64,000 bases of DNA from positions 1 to 64,000 of IMG/VR virus record IMGVR_UViG_2791355076_000001; one strand, written 5' to 3'. A model generated the notes under the pieces. The model was not told the origin of the DNA. It did no database searches and was given only the letters and a program-made list of their open reading frames with translations. The position numbers and the translations under genes were made by a program. This document shows, one piece after another, positions 2,752-38,885 of this stretch (the first letter of the stretch is position 1; the number at the start of each line of letters is the position of its first letter). This DNA is from a virus (lineage: Duplodnaviria > Caudoviricetes).

Positions 2752-3150
2752 ATGAGAGATATGCAGGAAGTTTTATCGCGTTGGGGTGCGTGGTCAGCTA
2801 ATGAGGGAAATAGTATCGATTACTCATCAATTGCCGCCGGTTTTAAAGGATTAATTCCAAGCTCAAGACGAAGCCGAGAGCAATGCTCAGATGATGATGG
2901 CTTAAAAATCAATAAAGCGGTATTACATTTAAAGGTAAATAATAGTTACTTGTTTCAGTTGGTTATTATGTACTATGTGAAGAATTATCCTTTGCGTTCA
3001 ATGGCTTCAAAACTCGGTATTTCTCATAATGAAGTGGCTAAGCGATTGCAGACAGCGGAGGGATTTATTGAAGGGTGTTTATCGGTTGATAACGTAAAAT
3101 TAGATATGGATAAAATAATTAGAAAACACCGCATTTACAGTCTTGCGTAA
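2752..3150 (+). CDS. Q: Late antitermination protein Q
   Basis: MRDMQEVLSRWGAW...CSDDDGL...LQTAEGFIEGCL; followed by promoter and terminator. Confidence 0.85.
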   Translation: MRDMQEVLSRWGAWSANEGNSIDYSSIAAGFKGLIPSSRRSREQCSDDDGLKINKAVLHLKVNNSYLFQLVIMYYVKNYPLRSMASKLGISHNEVAKRLQTAEGFIEGCLSVDNVKLDMDKIIRKHRIYSLA

Positions 3151-3245: not shown

Positions 3246-3490
3246 AGGTCTACTTAAGCTGATTTATAGTTAAAAAATAAAGTTTGCTATCTGAATTTTT
3301 CTATGGCTTAATAGCGTCACTGGTTTGGAAGTACAGACCTATTTATGTTAGTAAGTTTAAAGTTGTTCCCGTTTAGCGTTATCCTCGATACCTCTTCATT
3401 GTGAATTCCTTCTAATTAATTCCCATAAGTAAAAATACAAAACAAACCGCCTATGCCTTATGGCAAATTAAATAAATTAAAGGAAATTCT

Positions 3491-3703
3491 ATGTCTAATA
3501 CAATGACTGGTACAGTAAAATGGTTCGATGAAGGTAAAGGTTTTGGTTTTATTACTCCAGCTGATGGCAGCAAAGATGTCTTCGTACATTTCTCTGCAAT
3601 CCAAAGTGATAGTTTCAAAACATTAGCGGAAGGCCAACAAGTTTCATTCACCATGGAAAATGGTATGAAAGGCCCAGCAGCAGGCAACGTGGTGGCTCTC
3701 TAA
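3491..3703 (+). CDS. csp: Cold-shock protein (CspA family)
   Basis: GTVKWF...[24 protein letters not shown]1/RNP2. Confidence 0.97.
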
Positions 3704-3710
3704 AGGCGCT

Positions 3711-3851
3711 ATTACTATTCGCCTCTATTTTAAATGCCCTTGTTGTAGCAGTTCACAATATAGAACATCACAATTTGATGTCACAGTGAACAATCCACAC
3801 GGCGCAAAATGTATCTTTTGCAAAAGTGTGATGACAGCTCAAATGAGTTGA
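3711..3851 (+). CDS. ymcF: YmcF/YnfQ-like small Zn-knuckle cold-shock protein, ATT start (46 aa, not in ORF track)
   Basis: ITIRLYFKCPCCSSSQYRTSQFDVTVNNPHGAKCIFCKSVM; directly after csp. Confidence 0.8.
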   Translation: MTIRLYFKCPCCSSSQYRTSQFDVTVNNPHGAKCIFCKSVMTAQMS

Positions 3852-4034: not shown

Positions 4035-4493
4035 ATGCCTAACATTAAACCTTTTTCATTATTCCCAACATTATCTGATAACTTACTTTCAAACCGTTTT
4101 GATCAGATAGATCGCCTGTTTAGTCAGTTAACAGGCAGTAAGCCTATTGCATCACCTGTACAGACTTATAACCTGAAACAGATTGATGATAACCATTATG
4201 AACTGACGGTGAGTGTGCCAGGATATCAAGAAAATGACTTATCGGTTTCATTAAATGGTAGTCGTTTATTGATTGAAGGGAAAAAAGAAGAAAAATCAGA
4301 AGAAGACAATGATAAATGGATCCACCGAGGCATATCTCAAGGGCAATTTACGTTGCAGTTTGACCTCGGTAAGAATGTTAAAATAGAAAAAGCGGATTTA
4401 TCAAGTGGGCTTCTGACCATTGCTATTGAGTATGAGTTACCGGAAGAAGAAAAACGGCAAACAATAGCGATAGAAAATAAAGATAAAAAATAA
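4035..4493 (+). CDS. Small heat-shock protein (Hsp20/IbpA family)
   Basis: YNLKQIDDNHYELTVSVPGY...WIHRGIS...F.LQFDL...ADLSSGLLTI alpha-crystallin motifs. Confidence 0.9.
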   Translation: MPNIKPFSLFPTLSDNLLSNRFDQIDRLFSQLTGSKPIASPVQTYNLKQIDDNHYELTVSVPGYQENDLSVSLNGSRLLIEGKKEEKSEEDNDKWIHRGISQGQFTLQFDLGKNVKIEKADLSSGLLTIAIEYELPEEEKRQTIAIENKDKK

Positions 4494-4628: not shown

Positions 4629-4655
4629 GTCTGGTTTGAGCGAAAAGCGGAAGTT
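4629..4655 (-). repeat. Cassette-boundary site type A (TCGCTCA core)
   Basis: Minus strand aacttccgcttttcgctcaaaccagac, just downstream of gajB. Confidence 0.7.
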
Positions 4656-4679
4656 AAATGGTTAGACGTTAGCATCGAC

Positions 4680-5834
4680 TTACAGAGGTCTAACCCAATG
4701 CGGCAGCTTTATATTTGTAAGATGCTCTTCCTCAACGACAAACGCCAGGCTGTAACGAGCCCGGGTAATGGCCACGTACAGCTTGTTTCTAGATTCCTCC
4801 GTTTTATCTCTATCGAACACGCCAAGGTCGCCCCCCAGATACTTGAGATGTTTCTCCGGTGAAATAATTAGTATGCGGTCAAAACCGAGACCTTTACAGG
4901 AGCCGAAGGTGTGACAGGTGAGACTTGGTGGCAAATAGCCTTTTCCCATGAGCGATGACCATCGCAAAACTTGAGGTTTGAATATATCGAGATAATCGTT
5001 CACCTGAGATGGTTTTATGAGAAAACAGCCGTAGTGATGGGCCATTTCTGCAGGAACTTCTCCCACCTCTGATTGCGTTTGTTCATAAATACCGGGATGA
5101 ATGGTATCCGCGAGATCGCAGATTTCCTGAATACATCTGCGATTCTTCGCCAGCGAGAACAGACTAAAATTGAGGTCTTTGAAGTATTGAATCTTTTGCT
5201 CAGGTGTTTCCGGTGCCTTGTGGCCGAACGTGGTCGTGTAAATAGTTTGACGAAAATCGCCTACACAGCAAATAGAGTTATGCATTGCCTTACTGAGTGC
5301 TTTGATAACGTCAAAATCCCATCCAACCAAATCCTGAACCTCATCAAAAAAGATCCTCTGATAAATCTCTTTCAATCTGCTAGCGGGGGCATTCTTTGTT
5401 GAAGCGGAGATTCTTGTTGCCAGCTTCGCCAGCAGTCCTGTGTAAGCTTTGGTTTTGCACGGCGTCAGATAATGAAGAGGATTCAGCACCCCATTAATTT
5501 TTTCCCCTCTTTTGGGATGCCATTTCCTCGTACCAGGTATCAGGTGAGGGTTATGCTCGGTGAACATTGTAGAAGTGATTCGATCTGGAAACATGGCCGT
5601 TTGATAAGGTCTCACTAAGTCTTCTAGGTAAAATGAAAACAGGCCTTTCACAACAAAATCATCGCTGTGTTTGCCGTACAATTCCACAAAGCGAGAACGG
5701 AGCTCTGCCTGGTTGTTCATGGTGTAGGTGACGACCAATACGCGTCCGCCCGCCTTTATGACTTCAATGGCATCCTCAATGACTTTTTGGGTTTTTCCTG
5801 ATCCTGCACCGGCAATCCAGAATTCATTAGGCAA
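4680..5834 (-). CDS. gajB: Gabija GajB (UvrD-like helicase); likely TTG start overlapping the gajA stop
   Basis: AGAGSGKT Walker A, FFDEVQD, VGDFRQTIY, KGLGFD, LYVAITRAR SF1 motifs. Confidence 0.85.
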   Translation of the reverse strand: MPNEFWIAGAGSGKTQKVIEDAIEVIKAGGRVLVVTYTMNNQAELRSRFVELYGKHSDDFVVKGLFSFYLEDLVRPYQTAMFPDRITSTMFTEHNPHLIPGTRKWHPKRGEKINGVLNPLHYLTPCKTKAYTGLLAKLATRISASTKNAPASRLKEIYQRIFFDEVQDLVGWDFDVIKALSKAMHNSICCVGDFRQTIYTTTFGHKAPETPEQKIQYFKDLNFSLFSLAKNRRCIQEICDLADTIHPGIYEQTQSEVGEVPAEMAHHYGCFLIKPSQVNDYLDIFKPQVLRWSSLMGKGYLPPSLTCHTFGSCKGLGFDRILIISPEKHLKYLGGDLGVFDRDKTEESRNKLYVAITRARYSLAFVVEEEHLTNIKLPHWVRPL

Positions 5835-7485
5835 AGTCGAACACCTCATCGAGGAAAGGTGGATACCTGAAATTCAGAGTGCAATCGAACAGCTTGATAG
5901 CTGAATCGACCTTGCGAGCGCCCTTACCGTTTCCCTGGACGCTTCGAAACCAGTCGATCAGAAAGTCGCGTCGCTTATCTAAGTCGACTACTTTATCGTA
6001 GAGGTTAAACGTCTGTGTCGATAACACCACTTTGGCGAAAGCGTCCAGCGTAACCAAGTCGGTTGCATTGGCATATATCATCGCGGGTTCAAGCGAAAAC
6101 TCCTCATTTTTGGCAGAGGAGATAAGTTTGATATTGGGATAGGCTGCATAATCGGTACGCACTTTCACGACGTTTTCTTCATAGTCGCCATCGTTATCTC
6201 TGAGGACGTTTATCCGGGTACCAATTTCCATACCTACGGAGATGAACGTATCAAACCCGACTCCGCGCACGACGATGATATCAATACCATCCTGCTCGGG
6301 CAGGCGGTTGTGCTTGCGGTGGTAAATCTTCTTGAGTACTAACTCGTCTGACGGTCCCTCGACAAGGATGACTTTGTGCGACAGTGCCACGCGCAATGTG
6401 TCATAGCCCGGTAAGCGCTTTAAGGTTTTGACCACTGCAGGGGCAAGCTTATGCAGACGTTTGTATCCCGACTGAACCAGGCAGATTTTATCAATGCTCA
6501 GCTTGTTGAGCACATACGAGCTGTGAGTGGTAAGGAAGAGTTGTTTGTCACCCCGCTGATTTTCAATGTAGTGAATCAGCTTATTGAGGTTAGTGTGAGA
6601 AAGGTGATTTTCTGGCTCCTCCATCATCACCAAATCGATATCCTTCGATTTGTTCTGAATCGCGAGCTTAATCTGCACATTACTCTGCTCACCCTTGCCA
6701 ATGAACTGGAAAGGGACATCATCTACTTCAAGTTGAAGGCTGGTCTGAATAGATCCCGCTGGTAAAGTGCTTGCGGCAATGGACAGCTTTTTTTCTGTGA
6801 TCAAGTGGTCCGTATCCAAACCGGTGTTGACTGTCCTGACCTCACCTGAGTTGTTAAAAACCTGCTGATTCTCACGATAATTGAGGGTCAGCTTAACCAG
6901 CTCCTCTTTCTTTAAAGCGGTATTAAGTATGGTAGAGATATACTGATTCTTACCTAGAGTGGGGTGGATACGAGTTGGGTCGATGTATAACGCCCTGAAT
7001 TTCTTCGCTACGGCTTTAACAGGATTCCACCCGAAATCCAGCCATTCCAGCTTGTAGAATTCGATCGGGATACTCGTAATGTGCGGGTTTGTCAGTAAGT
7101 GTTCGGCGTAAACATCCTTTAGCGTGTCATCAAAACGCACCAGCACAGTGATACCTTGAGCATCGGCTTTAAGGAAATTATTTGTACCCCGGTATTCAGG
7201 CACTCCCTCAATGAATGCCTCTATTGCCAAGACAGGCAAGTGCATGGCCGATTTATCAGAAGCCAAAAAAAGCTGCACTGCATCCTTATTAAAAATGTCT
7301 GGCGTAAACTCGCTGTTGAAGGGACGGCCCCGATAGCTGTAATTCAGTACGATTTCTAGGGCTTCCAGAATAGTACTTTTACCGGCGTTGTTATCACCTA
7401 CAAAGATATTTACGTCATCGTTGAATTCAAAATGTTCATCTTTGAATTTCTTGAAATTGGTAAGCTTAATCGATTTAACCCGCAC
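5827..7485 (-). CDS. gajA: Gabija GajA (OLD-family ABC ATPase + TOPRIM nuclease)
   Basis: GDNNAGKST Walker A, MEEPENHL Walker B, TTHS, ILVEGPSDE and DND TOPRIM; paired with UvrD-like gene. Confidence 0.87.
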   Translation of the reverse strand: MRVKSIKLTNFKKFKDEHFEFNDDVNIFVGDNNAGKSTILEALEIVLNYSYRGRPFNSEFTPDIFNKDAVQLFLASDKSAMHLPVLAIEAFIEGVPEYRGTNNFLKADAQGITVLVRFDDTLKDVYAEHLLTNPHITSIPIEFYKLEWLDFGWNPVKAVAKKFRALYIDPTRIHPTLGKNQYISTILNTALKKEELVKLTLNYRENQQVFNNSGEVRTVNTGLDTDHLITEKKLSIAASTLPAGSIQTSLQLEVDDVPFQFIGKGEQSNVQIKLAIQNKSKDIDLVMMEEPENHLSHTNLNKLIHYIENQRGDKQLFLTTHSSYVLNKLSIDKICLVQSGYKRLHKLAPAVVKTLKRLPGYDTLRVALSHKVILVEGPSDELVLKKIYHRKHNRLPEQDGIDIIVVRGVGFDTFISVGMEIGTRINVLRDNDGDYEENVVKVRTDYAAYPNIKLISSAKNEEFSLEPAMIYANATDLVTLDAFAKVVLSTQTFNLYDKVVDLDKRRDFLIDWFRSVQGNGKGARKVDSAIKLFDCTLNFRYPPFLDEVFDFA

Positions 7486-7649
7486 TCTAAGTCCCTCAAG
7501 ATACTGTCAAATGATACCTCTTAAAGATATTAACTCACCGATATACCTGTGTCCACATGCAGGCTCGTTGTCCCCTTAAATCCTGCAGGCACTGAAGTGG
7601 TGGTCGACATAAATAGGCCAAGATATGAGAGCTGTTCTTGGACAACTTA

Positions 7650-7675
7650 AAGTCTGCTTTTGGCACTGTGCGGAC
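7650..7675 (-). repeat. Cassette-boundary site type B (GTGCCA core)
   Basis: Minus strand gtccgcacagtgccaaaagcagactt, upstream of gajA. Confidence 0.7.
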
Positions 7676-8011: not shown

Positions 8012-8282
8012 ACCTTTTAATAGGGTTTCATTCTTGATAGCACACACAAGTGCTTTTATTGCAAAAATAAAGTTTGCTATCTGAATTTTTCTATGGCTTA
8101 ATAACGTCACTGGTTTGGAAGTACAGGCCTATTTATGTTAGTCAGTTTAAAGTTGTTCACCGTTTAGCGTTATCCTCGATACCACTTCATTGCGAATTCC
8201 TTCTAATTAATTCCCATAAGTAAAAATAAAAAACAAACCCTCATATGCCTTATGGCAAATTAAATAAATTAAAGGAAATTCT

Positions 8283-8495
8283 ATGTCTAATACAATGACT
8301 GGTTCAGTAAAATGGTTTAACGATGATAAAGGTTTTGGTTTCATCACTCCTAAAGATGGAAGTAAAGATGTATTTGTACATTACTCTGCAATTCAGAGTG
8401 ATGACTTCAAATCTCTGATGGAAGGCCAAGAAGTTTCATTTACCATTGAAAATGGTATGAAAGGCCCAGCAGCAGGCAACGTGGTGGCTCTCTAA
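8283..8495 (+). CDS. csp: Cold-shock protein (CspA family), second copy
   Basis: [31 protein letters not shown]. Confidence 0.97.
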
Positions 8496-8502
8496 AGGCG
8501 CT

Positions 8503-8643
8503 ATTACTATTCGCCTCTATTTTAAATGCCCTTGTTGTAGCGGTTCACAATATAGAACATCACAATTTGATGTTACAGTGAACAATCCACACGGCGCAAA
8601 ATGTATTTTTTGTAAGACTGTGATGGCTGCTCAAATGAGTTAA
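8503..8643 (+). CDS. ymcF: YmcF/YnfQ-like small protein, ATT start, second copy
   Basis: FKCPCCSGSQYRTSQFDVTVNNPHGAKCIFCKTVM; several synonymous differences vs copy 1. Confidence 0.8.
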   Translation: MTIRLYFKCPCCSGSQYRTSQFDVTVNNPHGAKCIFCKTVMAAQMS

Positions 8644-8981: not shown

Positions 8982-9057
8982 TCCGCCATTAGCTTAACTG
9001 GGAGAGTATTTAGTTTTATTTAAACTAAAAGTCGAGGTTCGATACCTTGATGGGGCC
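8982..9057 (+). pseudogene. Degenerate tRNA relic
   Basis: TAGCTTAACTGGGAGAG D-arm, CGAGGTTCGATACCTTG T-arm; imperfect acceptor stem, no CCA, AT-rich anticodon arm. Confidence 0.6.
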
Positions 9058-32614: not shown

Positions 32615-32862
32615 AGATATATGAAAAAGGAAAGCCAATAAAAATCACAGGGCGTTCGTTTATTTTTGACCAAATAGCGGTCACTCAGAATGGCAGTAAA
32701 ACTTATAATAATATTCCTAAAGGGCGGTCATTGGCCGCCTATATTGTAGCTAGAAACCGAGGATCTTATTTCACTGTTAAAGTCGAGAATAATAAAATTT
32801 CGTGGAATTCTCTACGCGGTAGTCAATCGATTAATGGAATTATTATGGTACTAATTAAATGA
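32599..32862 (+). CDS. Tail-tip associated hypothetical protein
   Basis: MSWGIEIY start typical of post-cor genes; overlapping operon. Confidence 0.6.
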   Translation: MSWGIEIYEKGKPIKITGRSFIFDQIAVTQNGSKTYNNIPKGRSLAAYIVARNRGSYFTVKVENNKISWNSLRGSQSINGIIMVLIK

Positions 32863-33503
32863 GTAAATATGGTGCATTATTTTTTAATCAGGGCATTACC
32901 GAAGAATTAACACCTTATGAATCAGCCGTATTTTTAAAAAAGATAAAAACTAAGCCGGGGCTAATTAAAATTATCGAAGGTAATAATAACGCAGTGCCAC
33001 TTATTTTTATTCGAGTTCTTAATTCTTCTAATCCATCATTAGGTGGATTATCTGAAGTAATTTATGAGAATAATGCGTGGTGTGTGAATTTAATCGATAC
33101 TATTCAAGGCAATTCAGCAGAATATGAGCTCTATGTATTTGTGAAGTCTTCTTATCATATTTCACTTCATCCTCAAAAATGGGGAATTCAAATTTATCAT
33201 AAAGGTGTTATTACACATGCTTCAAGCCAAAGACCGCTTAATTTATTAGAGGGAAATAACTTTGTGCTCACAGGAAATAATTGGAGTGGCGTGGATGTCG
33301 GTTTCCCCTGTGCGGTATTAATCACAACAATTGGACATATTGGGATGATGGATTCTATGGGAGGAAAAACGATTAGAGTAACCCTATGTGGACGAGGTAA
33401 CCGTATTATTCCTCATTCCATGATTGTAGCCGGACAAATGTCAACAACCTCGCTAGGAAAGCAGTATTTTTATATTGATGTAAGGGAGTATGGTGGGGGC
33501 TAG
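32859..33503 (+). CDS. Tail-tip associated hypothetical protein
   Basis: MSKYG...KWGIQIY...SSQRPL repeat motif. Confidence 0.6.
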   Translation: MSKYGALFFNQGITEELTPYESAVFLKKIKTKPGLIKIIEGNNNAVPLIFIRVLNSSNPSLGGLSEVIYENNAWCVNLIDTIQGNSAEYELYVFVKSSYHISLHPQKWGIQIYHKGVITHASSQRPLNLLEGNNFVLTGNNWSGVDVGFPCAVLITTIGHIGMMDSMGGKTIRVTLCGRGNRIIPHSMIVAGQMSTTSLGKQYFYIDVREYGGG

Positions 33504-33564
33504 GAAAGAGTTTAGTTAGTTTAATTGATGGGAAAAAGGTCACTAAAGAAATATATTCGTTGGT

Positions 33565-33591
33565 GGTCTGCTTTGTGCCAATAGCGGACGT
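33565..33591 (+). repeat. Cassette-boundary site type B
   Basis: ggtctgctttgtgccaatagcggacgt. Confidence 0.72.
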
Positions 33592-33900
33592 CACTACAGT
33601 GGCTTGCGATATTAGGGGGCAGGGTTAGTCAAAACATTACTGACATCACCGCGTATTGATCAACCGAGAGCAAAGTCAATGGTGGCTTATTAGGTCTACA
33701 GAAGTGGGCTTGATGATGTATTTAGGCTGTCTGAAGGCTGTTCTGGATTGATTACGCAAGACTACCTAATAAGGGTTTATAACACTTATCATGCTAACAA
33801 CACATTGCTGTACATTCACGGTATGTATGATATACATCCAGCCAGCGTGATAGATGGGCTTTAACACAGTTACTGATTGAGGCATACAAGGAGCCAGATA

Positions 33901-35115
33901 ATGTACTTACCATCAAAAAGTCTTTGTGACATTTTAGCATCAGAACAAGTTGGAGTTTTTTGTGAGTCCAATTCTTCAGGCGATAAAGCGTTAGTAGCAA
34001 AATTACCTACATCAGTCATCAAGTCCATTTTACTTGGTGTTAAGATAGAATTTTATCTATTTGTTAAAATAAATCCCCCACATAATATCGCATTGGCCTT
34101 AAAAGTATTTGATAATAAATCATCACCTTTCCATGGGATACTTGCTCAACGTTGGAGTAATCGCAATAATATTTTTGATGATTCATTCTTAGACTCAGAT
34201 ATCCACCTATCTTTATTCGACGAGACTGACGCGAGCGTTGCATATGGAACAATAAATATAAAAACTAACTTTAGAAACAAAAGAGCTTATAACATAATTG
34301 CAAACTTTGAATTTTCTTCAGCAAATAATCATCTAGATAACATTAAATTCACTGATTCGGTATGTGCCTCATTAGGATCTGATGATGTGAAACATGCGGG
34401 ATTCAATGTGTTAAAATTTCACTTCCCCATTAAGGTTAAAGAACTTGAGACTATCCTTACGCATCATGTAAATCATCAAGGTTCATCAAGTTATGAAGTG
34501 GCTACAGAGATTGATGGCGCGCGGCAGGAACGTCAGATTTATCAGGCGATTTGCCTGATGGATAACTCCTCAACGACCTTGTCTCCATTAGTAACGATTG
34601 GGAAAAAGGAAAGAGAACTAACAGATGTATTAACTTGCTCGCTAAACAATAAAGTTATTGCGATTGAGTCTAAATGCCTACAAGTAAACGTATCGACTCT
34701 AGATAAATCTCGTGAACGAGCTTCATCGAGCATGATTAAACACTGCAGGAAAGCAATTAATCAACTGGAAGGGGTCTATAAAGCAATAAATAGAGGTGAG
34801 AAAATATATAACTCTGCTGGAATAACACTCTTGCATGGTGGCGATTATGATTTCTATGGCATAGTCCTAATAGATGAATATAGAGAGTCAAAAGAGTGGC
34901 CTGAAATAATTGGGTTAATTGAAGATATTAGCAGGCGACACAAAATTTGCATAAATGTTATCAGTGTGTCAGAAATTATTTACAATATGAAATTAAGTTC
35001 ATCAAATACTGACACGTTCATTAGCATGCTTCAAAAGCGGCATGAGCTATGCTTAAAAAAGAATTGTATTAATATTAAGTTCATTAACTCATCATTACCA
35101 ACTATGCCTGACTGA
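33901..35115 (+). CDS. Hypothetical protein with C-terminal PD-(D/E)xK/NERD-like nuclease motif
   Basis: AGGAG SD before ATG 33901; GARQE...ERELTDVL...IAIESK...KAINQL. Confidence 0.7.
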   Translation: MYLPSKSLCDILASEQVGVFCESNSSGDKALVAKLPTSVIKSILLGVKIEFYLFVKINPPHNIALALKVFDNKSSPFHGILAQRWSNRNNIFDDSFLDSDIHLSLFDETDASVAYGTINIKTNFRNKRAYNIIANFEFSSANNHLDNIKFTDSVCASLGSDDVKHAGFNVLKFHFPIKVKELETILTHHVNHQGSSSYEVATEIDGARQERQIYQAICLMDNSSTTLSPLVTIGKKERELTDVLTCSLNNKVIAIESKCLQVNVSTLDKSRERASSSMIKHCRKAINQLEGVYKAINRGEKIYNSAGITLLHGGDYDFYGIVLIDEYRESKEWPEIIGLIEDISRRHKICINVISVSEIIYNMKLSSSNTDTFISMLQKRHELCLKKNCINIKFINSSLPTMPD

Positions 35116-35280
35116 CAGTTATACTACTGATTAGCCCCGACCTGTAAAAAAGCTACTTTAGATCGGGGAATTAATCTAAGGATAGTAGGAGTCATGCACA
35201 ACTAATAGAAACCTAGACCTACTCCCATTGATTAGTTGAAGGTAATGTATGTAACGCATCGATAGATATAAATAATGAAT

Positions 35281-35349
35281 TTCGGCTTCTTACTCGTAGC
35301 TGGCTTTACGTCTCTTTAGCTGGGCGGTACGGTGCCAAAAGCGGAAGTT
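35281..35349 (+). repeat. Junction of site A + ~18 bp + site B between two cassettes
   Basis: ttcggcttcttactcgtagctggc (A) ... ggcggtacggtgccaaaagcggaagtt (B). Confidence 0.68.
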
Positions 35350-35390
35350 TGTAGTCCAAAATTCTGCAAACAAAACGGAGATTCTTAAAG

Positions 35391-35690
35391 TTACATAACT
35401 AGTGAATCCAGAGTCACTAAATGGGTAAGGGATATACATTTTTGCTTTGCAACAAAATCTGTTTCCTCCGCCTCTTGTGGAAGCATGTATAAAATATCTA
35501 GTGGCAATTCCGCTCCTGCAAGCTTTAGCTCTGCTTTTAGTTGGATTAATGCTTCTCCTGAAGGACCTATAACCAAAATATCATAATCCGTGCCTACTCT
35601 AAAAAGCGACGAGCCAAACATAAAGCATTCAAAAAACTTCAATGCTTGGCACGTTTTTAAAAGGTGGCGTGCCACGTCGCTTACCGACAT
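35391..35690 (-). CDS. Minimal nucleotidyltransferase (Pol beta/MNT fold), 99 aa
   Basis: FMFGSS...TDYDILVI and PLDIL motifs; ATG overlaps upstream TGA (TGATG). Confidence 0.8.
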   Translation of the reverse strand: MSVSDVARHLLKTCQALKFFECFMFGSSLFRVGTDYDILVIGPSGEALIQLKAELKLAGAELPLDILYMLPQEAEETDFVAKQKCISLTHLVTLDSLVM

Positions 35691-36334
35691 CAATGGCGAA
35701 GAATTAATTTCTTGAACTCTGACCATTTCATGACTCCGCAACCAAGTTCACGCCCTGCTGCAAGGGCATTTTTAGTAGGATCTCCGTTAGGATTAATGTT
35801 CCACATGACATCAACTGGACCAAACTTATCCCAAAATGATCGCACGGCATCAGCTGTGGGCTCATACTCAAGTAGCATACCCACCCTCAGCTTGCGACCA
35901 TTGGCTAAATCAATATTGAATACGCGATCAAACTCCCGCTCTATACTTCTTACAACGCTCATTTGAGTTATAAGCCGATACGAGAAAAAATAATCTTTGT
36001 GAGAAGCAATATTAACATTATTGTCTAAAAGGGCAGAATATAAGGTGCCTGCATTGCCCCATCCTATTCTTGCATCACTTAAGTAGTTGATAGCTTCACC
36101 TGTCCACACACACTCTTTTCTGTAACCACAGATAAAATCTAAATCAGGAAATTTTTCATGATACTGCTTAGCAATCTCAATAGTGATCTCATATGATGCG
36201 GAAATAATAGCTAATGTGTCAGGTCTGTCTTGGATAAAAATTCTGATTGCATCTTCAGCGACATGTTCTGCTGAAGCTGTTCTTTTGAGGTCGTTATTTA
36301 TATTTTCAAGTGCATATTTAACTTGCCAGTTCAT
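35690..36334 (-). CDS. Hypothetical protein with two internal repeats (possible degenerate Mrr/REase folds)
   Basis: ATGA overlap with HNH stop; halves align YEIT..EKFPDLDF..TGEA vs YEPT..DKFGPVDV..TKNA. Confidence 0.72.
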   Translation of the reverse strand: MNWQVKYALENINNDLKRTASAEHVAEDAIRIFIQDRPDTLAIISASYEITIEIAKQYHEKFPDLDFICGYRKECVWTGEAINYLSDARIGWGNAGTLYSALLDNNVNIASHKDYFFSYRLITQMSVVRSIEREFDRVFNIDLANGRKLRVGMLLEYEPTADAVRSFWDKFGPVDVMWNINPNGDPTKNALAAGRELGCGVMKWSEFKKLILRH

Positions 36335-37035
36335 GCAAATATTCCATCCATATCTTGAGGGTAACGAATGGCTCTTCCAGAAACACCACAAATATGGCGC
36401 TCAGAAAGTCCACGAACATGCTCTTTGTATTGTGCGAAGGTTTCCCGTTCTTCAGCTGTCAGATGACATAAGTTCATACTTATGATTGCCTGAATGCGGA
36501 AGTGATTAGGTAAAATGACACTTTTCATCCTTTTCGACCAAATTTGAGCTGTTTCAGACTCAGGATCGAACTCAGATCTAGTCCCGTCAACAGGAGCGAA
36601 CTCTTTCCATATAGCCTTACTTTCATCCATAGCTGCTATGATGGCCTCTCTTGCTTGTCTTCTATCTTCATAACAAATAATACCTTGCTTATGTGCTAAG
36701 GCTGAAAGATGGTTGCTCTTCCAATCTAAAATCATGCTTCTTGGGAATGAGTCAGGCTCTTTATCAATAATAGTGTGGCAAGTTGGACATAGTAGTATGA
36801 GATTTTCAAATAAGTCAGCTTCAAACTCCTCAGCAGGCCTCTCTTCGTGGCGAGGCCCAGCCTTACCATGAGGAATCACATGTGCCATTTCAGCTATATG
36901 CTTATCACCGCCTATCTCTGCTGGGAATAGTGGCTTAAGGCAATCTGGTTTCTGACAATGACCTGCCGATGCCGAAAATAACCGCAATTTGGTTTCGTTT
37001 GGGATACTTTTCCGAATAGCCATTTTAGATTCCAA
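36331..37035 (-). CDS. HNH endonuclease-domain protein
   Basis: LFSASAGHCQKPDC...AEMAHVIPHGKAGPR...ENLILLCPTCHTIIDK. Confidence 0.85.
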   Translation of the reverse strand: MESKMAIRKSIPNETKLRLFSASAGHCQKPDCLKPLFPAEIGGDKHIAEMAHVIPHGKAGPRHEERPAEEFEADLFENLILLCPTCHTIIDKEPDSFPRSMILDWKSNHLSALAHKQGIICYEDRRQAREAIIAAMDESKAIWKEFAPVDGTRSEFDPESETAQIWSKRMKSVILPNHFRIQAIISMNLCHLTAEERETFAQYKEHVRGLSERHICGVSGRAIRYPQDMDGIFA

Positions 37036-37153
37036 TGGATTGATTGTAAAATAAAAAAAATTCTGTGCTACACCTGAAATAGCATAAAGTTGATCACCTC
37101 ATATTGCACTACATTTCCATCAAGTTCTATACCATGTTGATAACAATTTCGAA

Positions 37154-37178
37154 TTTCTGCTCCTCGCTCAAAGCTGAT
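37154..37178 (+). repeat. Cassette-boundary site type A
   Basis: tttctgctcctcgctcaaagctgat. Confidence 0.72.
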
Positions 37179-37472
37179 AATCAAGTTCGAATGGTTGAAT
37201 AATAAATTGTTATTTTCATTTTAAATAAGATACTCTAAATTATTACTAGCTTTAATTATTATAACTAAACCTATTATTTAATATAAATAATAGGTTTGAG
37301 TGTTTGGCGGCAAGTTTAATAAGCTCTCAATCATTTAAAAAACTTCCCCAAAACCACTCCAACCCAAACTAAAAATCAATCAGTTACATACAAACCAAGA
37401 TCACATAAAAATAAATAATCACCTCCAATAATTATAATTTATTTAATAAGTTACGAAATTATTATGGGTATA

Positions 37473-37637
37473 ATGCTACGCCACATGGGTTGGACTGAAG
37501 CGGCTGACTTAATCATTAAAGGTATGGAAGGCGCGATTGCTGCTAAGACTGTAACTTATGATTTCGAACGTCAGTTAGAAGGCGCTAAACTGCTGAAATG
37601 TAGCGAGTTTGGTGACGCGATTATCAAACATATGTAA
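37473..37637 (+). pseudogene. icd': 3' fragment of isocitrate dehydrogenase (icdC-like att duplication)
   Basis: [54 protein letters not shown]. Confidence 0.95.
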
Positions 37638-37658
37638 TTGTTGATTTGATAAATAGTT

Positions 37659-37686
37659 AACGGGAGCTTATTAGTTCCCGTTTTTT
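37659..37686 (+). terminator. icd terminator copy
   Basis: aacgggagct-tatt-agttcccgttttttt. Confidence 0.85.
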
Positions 37687-37705
37687 ATTGTCAATTTTGA
37701 AATGG

Positions 37706-37738
37706 TTATCAAAAAATTATCAAAATGAATTATCAAAA
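37706..37738 (+). repeat. Three direct repeats TTATCAAAA (putative Int arm-type sites)
   Basis: Starting at 37706, 37717, 37730, adjacent to int 3' end. Confidence 0.7.
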
Positions 37739-37757
37739 CCACCTGAAATTTAGGCAA

Positions 37758-38885
37758 TTAAATCACGATTTTTATCCAATCTTTTCCTCGATCATCATGG
37801 TATTTATCTGTTTGAATTTGGTTCTTATGACCGAGTAAATCTTTAGTGTTTATACCTTGTGCTCTATATAACCTTTCAGATAAAGATCGTTGTTCATGAA
37901 ATGTTGCAGGTGTTCCTTCTCCCCAATCAATATCCGTTTTATTTCTCGCTTTTTTAAAGTTAGTCGTTAGCGTATTTGCAGTAACTTGATCACCACGTTT
38001 AGATTGTGAAGTAGTATGAAAGTAATGAATAAGATAAGGGCTAATAACGCGATCACGGCAACGGGCAACAACATCACGTAATGACATATTTAATTGTTCA
38101 GAACGTAGTGATAATGGAATAGCTAATTTAGTACCCGTTTTCTCTTGAGTAATATGCAAATGATCATCCCAAATATCACTAAACTTCATTGCGGAAATAT
38201 CACCTAATCGTTGGCCAGTAATTAACGCAAGCAACATGGCATTTCCCACATAACGATGTTGTTTATCAGCAATCTCAAATATCTTTTTCCATTCATCAAA
38301 ATTAAGGCGTTGGCGAGTTACTTTTCGTTTTGGCTGTTTAGTAGCGAGGGCAGGGTTATAACCGGGAGGAACTTCACCTGCATGTTGCGCTTCTTTAAAT
38401 ACATCAATTAAAACAGAGCGAATAACTTGTGCCATTCTGTGCTGACCATTAGATTTATATTCATCCAGAATTTCAGCAATATCTCTGGCATCAACAGCGG
38501 GTAATGGTTTCATGGATAAGGCTTGCCTCATTAAATCTACCGGCTTCCTTTTTTGTTTATAAGTATTCGGTTTTATATCACCTTCCTTTAAACGCTCTTC
38601 TTGAATAACCCAGTATTTATCCAACCAAGTATTAACCGTGATTTCTTTACCTTTTATTTTTGCCACCCGATCACCAATAGCCATAACTTGTCGGCTACGT
38701 TGTTCCGCTAACCTTGTGTTAGCTTCAATGGCTATTGCTTTCGCCTCGGCTTCATTGTCACCGAGGGCATGATATTTACCTGTTACAGGATGGCGGTAAC
38801 GCCAATAAACCTTGTTAGCTTTACGACTAAATAAAGGGTAAAGATTTGGAATATTGACGTTATTTTTACGAGGTCTGGCAGCCAT
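37758..38885 (-). CDS. int: Tyrosine integrase (lambda/phage 21 family)
   Basis: TGQRLGDI, QEKTG, FHEQRSLS, LLGH, Y catalytic residues; N-terminal arm-binding domain. Confidence 0.96.
   Translation of the reverse strand: MAARPRKNNVNIPNLYPLFSRKANKVYWRYRHPVTGKYHALGDNEAEAKAIAIEANTRLAEQRSRQVMAIGDRVAKIKGKEITVNTWLDKYWVIQEERLKEGDIKPNTYKQKRKPVDLMRQALSMKPLPAVDARDIAEILDEYKSNGQHRMAQVIRSVLIDVFKEAQHAGEVPPGYNPALATKQPKRKVTRQRLNFDEWKKIFEIADKQHRYVGNAMLLALITGQRLGDISAMKFSDIWDDHLHITQEKTGTKLAIPLSLRSEQLNMSLRDVVARCRDRVISPYLIHYFHTTSQSKRGDQVTANTLTTNFKKARNKTDIDWGEGTPATFHEQRSLSERLYRAQGINTKDLLGHKNQIQTDKYHDDRGKDWIKIVI

Follow-up and report, generated by a model that had tools for sequence, protein, structure and literature searches.

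Oriented palindromic sites bracket defence and accessory cassettes in a lambdoid prophage, pointing to a barely described integron-like trading of accessory genes

It is not settled how anti-phage systems come to be swapped so fast at hotspots in phages and islands. Rapid replacement and exchange with unrelated replicons, with no transposons, are described in the available text of a 2026 survey covering thousands of P2 and P4 elements, which states that the recombination processes at these defence hotspots 'still need to be elucidated' (PMC13586616). The window analysed here, a 64,000-nucleotide stretch of viral DNA (IMG/VR record IMGVR_UViG_2791355076_000001, positions 1 to 64,000), has unrelated genes lying between short oriented palindromes that an earlier note had read as the recombination sites of an undescribed, integron-like system capturing defence modules. 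All six of the claimed sites are present, within 1-2 bases of where they had been placed, and the layout proposed for them is correct, being B-[ORF]-A-18 bp-B-[three genes]-A at one locus and, on the minus strand, B-[gajA gajB]-A at the other. The orientation of the cargo relative to the sites varies, as had also been claimed. The features are as follows.

4629-7675, minus strand: Gabija cassette, with an A site at its left end and a B site at its right end
4629-4652, plus strand: A site, GTCTGGTTT GAGCGA AAAGCGGAA, core at 4638-4643, AAAGCGGAA being the cargo-facing arm; arm score 21.2
4680-7485, minus strand: Gabija cargo, gajB at 4680-5849 and gajA at 5827-7485
7652-7675, minus strand: B site, plus strand reading GTCTGCTTT TGGCAC TGTGCGGAC, with TGGCAC at 7661-7666; score 20.0
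33566-33589, plus strand: B site, GTCTGCTTT GTGCCA ATAGCGGAC; arm score 23.8; left end of cassette 1 and of the whole array
33877-35115, plus strand: cargo 1, a 412-aa ORF (404 aa if translation begins at ATG 33901)
35281-35304, minus strand: decayed A site, core TTACTC; arm score 13.1; right end of cassette 1
35305-35322, no strand assigned: junction spacer between <A and B>, 18 bp
35323-35346, plus strand: B site, GGCGGTACG GTGCCA AAAGCGGAA; arm scores 0.5 bits on the left and 11.5 bits on the right; left end of cassette 2
35391-37035, minus strand: cargo 2, three overlapping ORFs at 36331-37035 (234 aa, HNH), 35690-36391 (233 aa) and 35391-35741 (116 aa)
37155-37178, minus strand: A site, plus strand reading TTCTGCTCC TCGCTC AAAGCTGAT; score 16.0; right-hand limit of cassette 2 and of the whole array

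Each 24-bp site consists of 9-bp inverted arms around a 6-bp core (9-6-9), and the two core classes, GTGCCA (B) and GAGCGA (A), differ only at core positions 2 and 5. The arms are kept by sequence, and the cargo-facing arm is the better conserved; in the B site at 35323-35346, for example, the cargo-facing arm matches the consensus and the spacer-facing arm is non-consensus. No compensatory pairing changes were seen between arms, departures from pairing being one-sided, and on account of this pattern and of their conserved sequence the arms look like protein-binding sites. The likelihood of such sites arising by chance was assessed with a matrix built from the arms alone, the core being unscored; of its 15 training sites, five came from the window itself. 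Eight matches at or above 11 bits were returned from the window, five of which have an A or B core, and no match with either core was returned from 100 Markov-1 random windows. Across the whole genome the matrix returned 213 matches, 9 of them with A/B cores against approximately 0.2 expected.

The sites delimit a repeated unit, B>cargo<A, of which the window contains three, distributed between two docking loci in prophage 1. The Gabija cassette lies 3' of the antiterminator Q region, whereas two stacked cassettes (33566-37178), the first B site of which directly follows genes of the tail-fibre region, are joined by a canonical '<A, 18 bp, B>' junction behind the tail-fibre genes. In the former, PADLOC identified GajB (3.1e-122) and GajA (2.5e-204) and Pfam identified UvrD-helicase and AAA_15 plus OLD-like TOPRIM domains, so that a GajA with ATPase and TOPRIM nuclease domains adjoins a UvrD-like helicase, GajB. 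Judged by these family matches, at least one of the three cassettes is of a proven anti-phage system type. The contents of the other two are less clearly assigned. The 412-aa ORF, previously called a nuclease, has no match in Pfam, PADLOC or NCBIfam; it belongs to hypothetical-protein clusters in the protein atlas and has a weak structural lead to NERD nucleases (TM 0.49), which is all that speaks for that name. In cargo 2 the 234-aa ORF matches Pfam HNH_2 (5.5e-05) and, at approximately 1e-22, the HNH part of CBASS-type effectors and PDC-M68A in PADLOC. Pfam, PADLOC and NCBIfam returned no match for the ORFs of 233 aa and 116 aa, and the label MNT given earlier to the latter is not borne out.

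Comparison with related elements revealed that homology breaks at the sites. The Gabija cassette (window 4637-7666) has a 95.5% identical copy with unrelated flanks in a Pantoea plasmid, where it sits between '<B, A>' and '<B'; homology starts at 4637, the edge of the A core, and stops at 7666, the last base of the B core. Cassette 1 (33566-35287) is 91.9% identical in genome G070, which belongs to another genus, and is again located between B and A sites, with homology beginning at 33566 and stopping at 35287, inside the A site that is decayed in the window and intact in G070. Since all arms resemble each other, such alignment ends do not place a crossover within the 24 bp. Cargo 2 has a 72%-identical copy in genome G044, also between A and B sites. 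Conversely, flanks are conserved where cargo differs. A paralogous prophage on contig C28 of the same genome shares both flanks at 96% identity and has a B site at the same boundary as that at 7652-7675, with AbiV and another Gabija as its cargo between an A and a B site. In the homologous prophage of the sister species (G018), other cargo lies between the same sites, and homology on the tail-fibre side ends at 33589, the end of the array's first B site. Presence/absence and homology breaks thus map to the sites rather than away from them, contrary to a refuting condition of the earlier note and as is expected of cassette arrays of the integron kind. No excised or empty form of the locus was found among contigs aligned to 32800-37700. 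The cargo is not confined to defence, an ars operon and a transporter being located between the same site types on the Pantoea plasmid.

The distribution of the sites extends well beyond this prophage. Of 401 genomes sampled from the GTDB family, 84 contain a strict B pattern, with 124 matches in all compared with 2 for the reversed control; the pattern was also present in at least 120 viral contigs. Eighty viral loci fetched by this pattern contain 101 B and 65 A sites, and 70 of the 87 neighbouring site pairs are arranged either as 'B> cargo <A' (46) or as '<A junction B>' (24), with a median cargo interval of 1396 bp; scrambled cores gave no match in the same loci. The composite junction comprises <A, a spacer of 14-18 bp, and then B>, with a start-to-start spacing of 42 in 13 of 27 distinct junctions (the mode) and of 38-42 in 22. 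The decayed A site of the window likewise starts exactly 42 bases ahead of the next B site. In phage P2 (AF063097), fun(Z) is flanked by a B site (15335) and an A site (17432), directly behind the tail-fibre assembly gene G. Judged from these matches, the sites are shared by phages, plasmids and islands from many enterobacteria, frequently with a very small recombinase gene between them.

Of 30 loci with this gene, which encodes a tyrosine recombinase of 200 aa, 27-28 have it between <A and B>. An A-type core, counted as TCGCTC or any of three one-base variants, is present within 120 bases upstream of the gene in 27 loci (at one of these, L091, the core counted is a more distant upstream variant, even though its gene is adjoined by a standard A site), and GTGCCA follows approximately 30 bases (at most 80) past the stop codon in 28. 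The catalytic domain PF00589 (Phage_integrase) scores 66 bits in G284 and G272, and 9.7e-19 in the intact G018 copy. A phmmer comparison with E. coli XerD (1a0p) lined up LRgcEL, HsmRR, LLGH and vrYL with the XerD motifs, and the alignment of the catalytic domain contains the Arg, His-x-x-Arg, His and nucleophile Tyr that we take to be the catalytic residues of XerD; a catalytic Lys did not emerge from it. The recombinase was found in 51 of the 401 genomes, and the strict B pattern occurs in 26 of these 51 compared with 58 of the 350 that are devoid of the enzyme, an odds ratio of 5.2 in a sample whose related genomes are not independent of one another. Many copies elsewhere are interrupted by stop codons, 58 of the 84 site-bearing genomes have no recombinase at E <= 1e-20, and the gene is within the fetched stretch of only one of the 80 viral loci. 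The only match in the present genome, searched as the assembly less 1804 bases, is a Xer-type gene with 24% identity; among its nine tyrosine recombinase genes, only the lambda-type integrase of prophage 2 sits at the arrays. The G018 array, by comparison, has an intact recombinase gene at the junction equivalent to the window's 18-bp spacer. The suggestion that a recombinase acts in trans fits these observations, and the 200-aa protein is a candidate for that enzyme by virtue of its adjacency to the sites.

The site grammar, the breakpoints at sites, the cassettes shared in unrelated flanks and the adjacency of recombinase and sites are together consistent with a site-specific process, and the six sites are probably core-type recombination sites of a cassette system. 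It is likewise considered probable that the cassettes are exchanged by site-specific recombination, here with no resident enzyme. The 200-aa recombinase, a catalytic domain alone, would bind the arms as a dimer, and strands would be exchanged over the core between sites of like type (B with B, A with A). Cargo at a docking locus could then be swapped via two crossovers, one per site type, whereas a cassette would be gained via one crossover with a circular cassette bearing the composite junction. Given that the genome has no recombinase copy and that the inner junction (35281-35346) has decayed, the arrays here are probably static now, left by earlier exchange, and might be mobilised only if the enzyme arrived on another element. 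The integron-like reading draws support from breakpoints and cargo swaps, though recombination itself is deduced from them and the window's inner junction is decayed. Counting against it are also the lack of the enzyme in this genome and in most site-bearing genomes and viral loci, the many broken copies and the lack of an excised or empty form of the locus. The orientation of cargo 2 in G044, flipped relative to the A and B sites, counts against the simple model, which does not predict it. More broadly, we lean slightly towards a widespread exchange, via two heterospecific 24-bp sites and a minimal catalytic-domain-only recombinase encoded in the junction, as a mechanism, not described as such, that moves defence and accessory genes between P2-like and lambdoid phage, plasmid and island hotspots across Proteobacteria, and in which the A/B junction may be a folded, attC-like substrate.

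Other explanations for the sites were considered. It is most improbable that they are regulatory or structural elements, i.e. terminators, insulators, operator palindromes, or the ends of MITEs or insertion sequences, for although they are intergenic palindromes bounding gene blocks, none of the four terminator-like matches in 33300-37800 is at a site, Rfam returned no family at the sites, and single sites fold weakly as hairpins (z +0.07 to -2.46), so that a known terminator family, which the earlier note had named as grounds for refutation, does not account for them. Neither would such elements explain two core classes in a fixed grammar, or the homology breakpoints. Equally remote is the notion that the sites are secondary attachment sites, either of the neighbouring lambda-type integrase (37758-38885) or of the prophage's own integrase. 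The former has an arm-binding domain and lies 580 bp from the last A site, and inverted core-type arms around a short overlap are textbook integrase core-site anatomy, but the same sites occur in phage P2, on a megaplasmid of Pantoea and across many genera whose integrases are unrelated, and prophage 2, to which the 37758-38885 integrase belongs, has no such site.

A somewhat stronger case, though still an improbable one, can be made for the palindromes being conserved boundaries at which general or phage-encoded homologous or illegitimate recombination exchanges the cargo, the small recombinase being mere cargo itself. Most site-bearing genomes and phages are without the recombinase, lambdoid phages are known from textbooks to have general recombination functions of their own, and homologous and illegitimate recombination are among the candidate mechanisms named in the available text of the 2026 hotspot study (PMC13586616). 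Against this, 24 bp with inverted arms and an asymmetric core of two classes is how a recombinase site is built, and a homology patch is not; the recombinase gene is positioned not as cargo would be but in place of the junction spacer, its start and stop lying at constant distances from site halves; and cassettes are common to replicons that are otherwise non-homologous. Only slightly more plausible, and on the whole unlikely, is that the '<A spacer B>' junction as a whole is the functional unit in place of the single 24-bp site, and recombines in folded, single-stranded form in the manner of attC, with the two fixed core mismatches marking the strand. When five intact junctions of 66 nt were folded as single-stranded DNA, three gave as their minimum-energy structure one long A-with-B hairpin whose internal mismatches are symmetric (-15.1 to -19.2 kcal/mol, z -3.3 to -5.5); the remaining two have the long hairpin as their centroid structure. 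The restriction of A/B core differences to positions 2 and 5 fits also. The hairpin is not independent evidence, however, because four arms from one palindromic family yield it automatically. Moreover, the arms are conserved in sequence, unlike those of attC sites, the window's own junction folds no better than shuffles (z 0.05), and both docking loci of the window end in a partnerless single A and single B (no B site follows the A site at 37155-37178), with breakpoints at both types.

If the preferred reading of A and B as paired recombinase sites is correct, conserved sites at exact breakpoints, together with a dedicated candidate enzyme, would make the question of hotspot swapping bench-testable. 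The sites would also provide a simple rule for the limits of a cassette and therefore a route to new defence genes between sites, and a heterospecific site pair would parallel in nature what is done in engineered cassette exchange. The value of the window is comparative, combining one prophage with two docking loci, a same-genome paralogue with other cargo and a sister-species array with the enzyme.

Several known systems bear comparison. Integrons similarly combine a tyrosine recombinase with short sites and promoter-poor cassettes of approximately 0.3-6 kb in stacked arrays, and the composite junction described here may also fold into an imperfect hairpin. Integron cassettes include anti-phage systems, according to the accessible part of one study (10.1101/2024.07.02.601686). 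Unlike in integrons, the enzyme here is a 200-aa catalytic domain alone that scores 58.9 bits against a cut-off of 220 with the NCBIfam Xer/integron-integrase model, and is on that measure not an IntI-type integrase. It is presumably some 120 aa shorter than integron integrases (IntI). Taken singly, the sites are sequence-conserved 24-bp palindromes of two core classes, whereas attC sites are imperfect hairpins with extrahelical bases, conserved in structure and variable in sequence. The arrays are located within phages, plasmids and islands and for the most part lack the enzyme; neither an attI-like platform nor a Pc promoter was identified for the A/B arrays.

The Z/fun locus of P2 matches 33566-37178 both in grammar and in its position behind the tail-fibre assembly gene, but the present case differs in its lambdoid host phage, its two docking loci and the candidate enzyme linked to the sites. 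A variable Z/fun locus in P2-like coliphages was reportedly described by Nilsson, Karlsson and Haggard-Ljungquist in 2004 (Mol Biol Evol 21:1-13). That work is cited for variable anti-phage loci in the part available of a later article (PMC9122126). The P2 repeats seem to be the sole part of the system in print, and the description of the system as undescribed should accordingly be softened to barely described as such. The pdif modules of Acinetobacter plasmids are also close in form, as inverted XerC/XerD sites with a 6-bp centre bracket unrelated gene modules whose movement is, as here, unproven. They differ in having dif-like sites (11-6-11), to which we take the A/B arms to be dissimilar, and in using host XerC/XerD in place of a separate 200-aa recombinase. 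Finally, the sfx core of the R64 shufflon is 5'-GTGCCAA-3', and sfx sites have a common spacer and right arm with a little-conserved left arm, as given in the accessible portion of the source (PMC4176322). GTGCCAA is also read at each of the window's three B sites, and conservation is stronger in the cargo-facing arm than in the other, a likeness that concerns the core and the pattern of arm conservation. R64 Rci only inverts segments of one gene, whereas here direct repeats of B occur and whole cassettes differ.

The window comprises the first 64 kb of contig C12. The genome it belongs to measures 3.96 Mb, has a G+C content of 39.7% and, judging from its best DNA matches, is Proteus-like. The start of the window falls within a lambdoid prophage (prophage 1), the late genes of which extend to 33503. 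The Gabija cassette (4629-7675) lies inside this prophage, while cassettes 1 and 2 (33566-37178, joined at 35281-35346) lie behind its tail-fibre region and comprise a 412-residue open reading frame without a family match and a three-gene block with an HNH domain in its first gene. The principal features are as follows.

2752-3150, antiterminator Q of the lambdoid prophage
4035-4493, HSP20 gene of the lambdoid prophage
4680-5849, GajB, a clear Gabija gene
5827-7485, GajA, a clear Gabija gene
37758-38885, lambda-type integrase, first gene of prophage 2, downstream of the lambdoid prophage

The cspA thermoregulator is matched over its full length at 3319-3757 (243 bits) and 8109-8537 (221 bits), giving the prophage two cold-shock gene leaders, one to each side of the segment with the HSP20 gene and the Gabija cassette. 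The second leader shares 91% identity with the first of the copies in a paralogous prophage on contig C28 of the same genome. A phage-borne tRNA-Asn at 8983-9057 has the unusual anticodon ATT; its Rfam match, at 29.8 bits, only just exceeds the gathering score of 29. Homology to the integrase-side sequences of other prophages in the genus starts at 37469-37473, where several public contigs also end or change; prophage 2 probably has its left attachment boundary here, approximately 290 bp past the last A site.

The six sites described in the earlier note are all present when read as 9-6-9 elements, five of them having good arms, near GTCYGCTTT and its complement, around a core of GTGCCA (B) or GAGCGA (A). 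The sixth, at 35281, is decayed, yet starts 42 bases ahead of the next B, the commonest A-to-B distance at other loci (42 bases in 13 of 27 distinct junctions, 38-42 bases in 22 of the 27). The grammar is exactly as drawn in that note, namely 'B> cargo <A', with successive cassettes linked by '<A, 18 bp, B>', where > and < denote site direction. Scanning with a matrix of the arms only, trained on a set that included some of the window's own sites but in which the core was never scored, returned eight matches in the window, five with an A or B core, versus none with such a core on 100 random windows; across the whole genome an A or B core accompanied 9 of 213 matches, against about 0.2 expected. 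A 7-bp spacer in the arm scan recovered no site, the 6-bp spacer being correct. Eight of 19 genus-level matches to a looser B pattern were discarded as chance, all falling in two conserved contexts with no palindromic left arm. A weak A-core match at C33:173935, for which no partner site was found, was also set aside. Separately, a solitary, near-perfect A site was observed at G000:C29:43045-43068 in the same genome (10046-10069 of fetched locus L001), some 470 bp past the 3' end of the tmRNA gene and at the edge of an island encoding a 1207-residue SF1-helicase-like protein and a second protein, of 196 residues, whose resolvase match is sub-threshold; a B partner was sought out to 9 kb and not found.

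Comparison with related sequences revealed that homology breaks at the sites. The paralogous prophage on C28 is 96% identical to the window up to 4556 and again from 7734, and between these points carries a kinase-like gene, AbiV, a gene of no assigned function and a different Gabija pair. This cargo is also flanked by an A site and a B site; different cargo at the same sites of related prophages was one of the checks proposed in the earlier note. Where the variable region begins on its left (4600-4640 of L002, the fetched C28 locus), the sequence resembles a cargo-facing arm that has decayed; were this so, the kinase-like gene (4765-5301) would form a cassette by itself. Tail-fibre homology with a sister species (G018) stops at 33589, the last base of a B site. 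The cassettes themselves are shared with unrelated replicons. The Gabija cassette is 95.5% identical to a copy on a Pantoea agglomerans megaplasmid, the match spanning the A core (4637) to the last B-core base (7666) between unrelated flanks. On the megaplasmid (NZ_CP103402.1; locus L105, 257-9036) the same A and B sites bound neighbouring units, an arsenic-resistance (ars) operon and an MFS transporter with a LysR regulator, indicating that cargo is not limited to anti-phage genes. Another genus carries a copy of cassette 1 (33566-35287) with 91.9% identity, bounded by B and A sites that are both intact. In a third genus, a 72%-identical homologue of cargo 2 (L103, G044:C1, 1306-3439) is likewise flanked by A and B sites but, compared with the window, is flipped relative to them, which suggests that cassettes are invertible between two unlike sites or were captured twice. 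Megablast against the phage collection returned no match for 32800-37750, and only a 76-base match to a Proteus phage for 3900-8100.

Sites of this family are widespread. A strict B pattern, fixed at 15 bases, gave 124 matches in a sample of 401 genomes of the GTDB family, distributed among 84 genomes and 54 of 178 genera, versus two for the reversed control, and was present in IMG/VR contigs, at least 120 of them. For the 80 viral loci among the matches listed, the grammar is followed by 70 of 87 pairs of neighbouring sites, the median cargo interval is 1396 bp, and scrambled cores gave 0 matches. The variable locus fun(Z) of phage P2, directly behind the tail-fibre assembly gene G, is flanked by B (15335) and A (17432) sites; repeats in P2 were apparently reported by Nilsson et al. 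in 2004.

The earlier note had ascribed the arrays to a recombinase, and a search for one co-occurring with the sites identified a small tyrosine recombinase with a fixed placement beside them in other genomes. Two genomes (G272 and G284) have a gene of approximately 200 codons with a PF00589 match beside A/B-type sites, and the G272 protein, when used as a query, found matches in 51 of the 401 genomes at E <= 1e-20, mostly with 86-98% identity and many interrupted by stop codons. Of the 30 best loci, 27 have an A-type core (TCGCTC or a one-base variant) no more than 120 bases upstream and 28 have a B core about 30 bases past the stop codon, indicating that the gene takes the place of the junction spacer. 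G018 has an intact copy in an array behind the homologous tail-fibre gene; it sits between <A and B>, exactly at the position of the 18-bp spacer in the window. In an alignment to the catalytic domain of XerD the catalytic motifs coincide, and the protein is too short to include a core-binding domain as well. Searching solved structures with phmmer returned nothing at E <= 0.001 and, with a looser limit, XerD at E 0.002-0.003; a single-sequence AlphaFold model was unusable (mean pLDDT 36.6). The strict B pattern occurs in 26 of the 51 enzyme-bearing genomes versus 58 of the 350 without the enzyme, an association that is overstated since the sample is rich in reduced genomes and related species. 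Within the genus, the recombinase is present in 4 of 21 genomes at E <= 1e-10, and a search of the window's genome with the protein did not find it. Plasmid homologues with 49-59% identity occur in Alpha- and Betaproteobacteria. Among those inspected on Cupriavidus, Agrobacterium and Phaeobacter plasmids, only the Agrobacterium copy (NZ_CP116737.1; L108, 2907-3668; 51% identity) has site-like flanks, with familiar arms and cores, GGGCCA and GCGCCA, each changed by one base; these may reflect variant specificity, although a single plasmid copy is too little for a claim of enzyme-site co-variation. An open frame of 210 residues, located where contig C10 ends and strongly matching PF00589, was set aside, having no A or B site in the 14.6 kb retrieved and no similarity to the small recombinase; it is taken to be a different enzyme, probably of the invertase type.

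Taken together, the arrays are probably best explained as a cassette system run by site-specific recombination. The site family, its grammar, the breakpoints, cassette sharing between unrelated replicons and the constant position of the recombinase gene are observed directly. That the small recombinase acts on the A and B sites, and how, we infer from its adjacency to them: exchange of a cassette would involve one crossover at each site type, and insertion a single crossover with a circle bearing a junction. The arrays in the window's genome are most likely static, given the lack of the enzyme there, the decayed inner junction and the lack of an alternative form in public contigs. One run's contig spans the whole array with ~2% differences, short cassette pieces occur in two further runs, and no excised or empty form was present among the contigs compared. 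A wastewater contig joining 33588 to 37151 was rejected as an empty allele, as it agrees over just 24 letters to either side and has different flanks; it is a separate element in which B and A sites adjoin.

As regards what the sites are not, a terminator function, considered in the earlier note, did not hold, the sites not coinciding with terminator-like hairpins, and no Rfam family was matched by them. A single-strand mechanism like that of attC, acting on the folded junction, is a less likely possibility: intact 66-nt junctions can form one long hairpin, with A paired to B and two mismatches, although this already follows from the symmetry of the arms. Single sites folded alone form weak structures, the better-conserved arm is the cargo-facing one, and departures from arm pairing in 74 A and 95 B sites are one-sided and not compensated, a pattern that fits protein binding. 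With respect to precedent for site-specific recombination at A and B sites, no published description of the enzyme together with the sites was found in a search mostly of openly accessible papers and of their main texts; subscription journals or supplementary files may contain site lists bearing on novelty. Neither repeats nor a recombinase are mentioned in the searched passages of a 2022 hotspot paper and a 2026 one (PMC13586616), the latter calling the mechanism unresolved, and the terms recombinase, inverted repeats, palindromes, site-specific and integron appear nowhere in a hotspot preprint (10.1101/2024.10.15.618418). Among known systems, the shufflon sfx core, as printed in PMC4176322, equals the B core plus the next base, which amounts to resemblance as opposed to membership.
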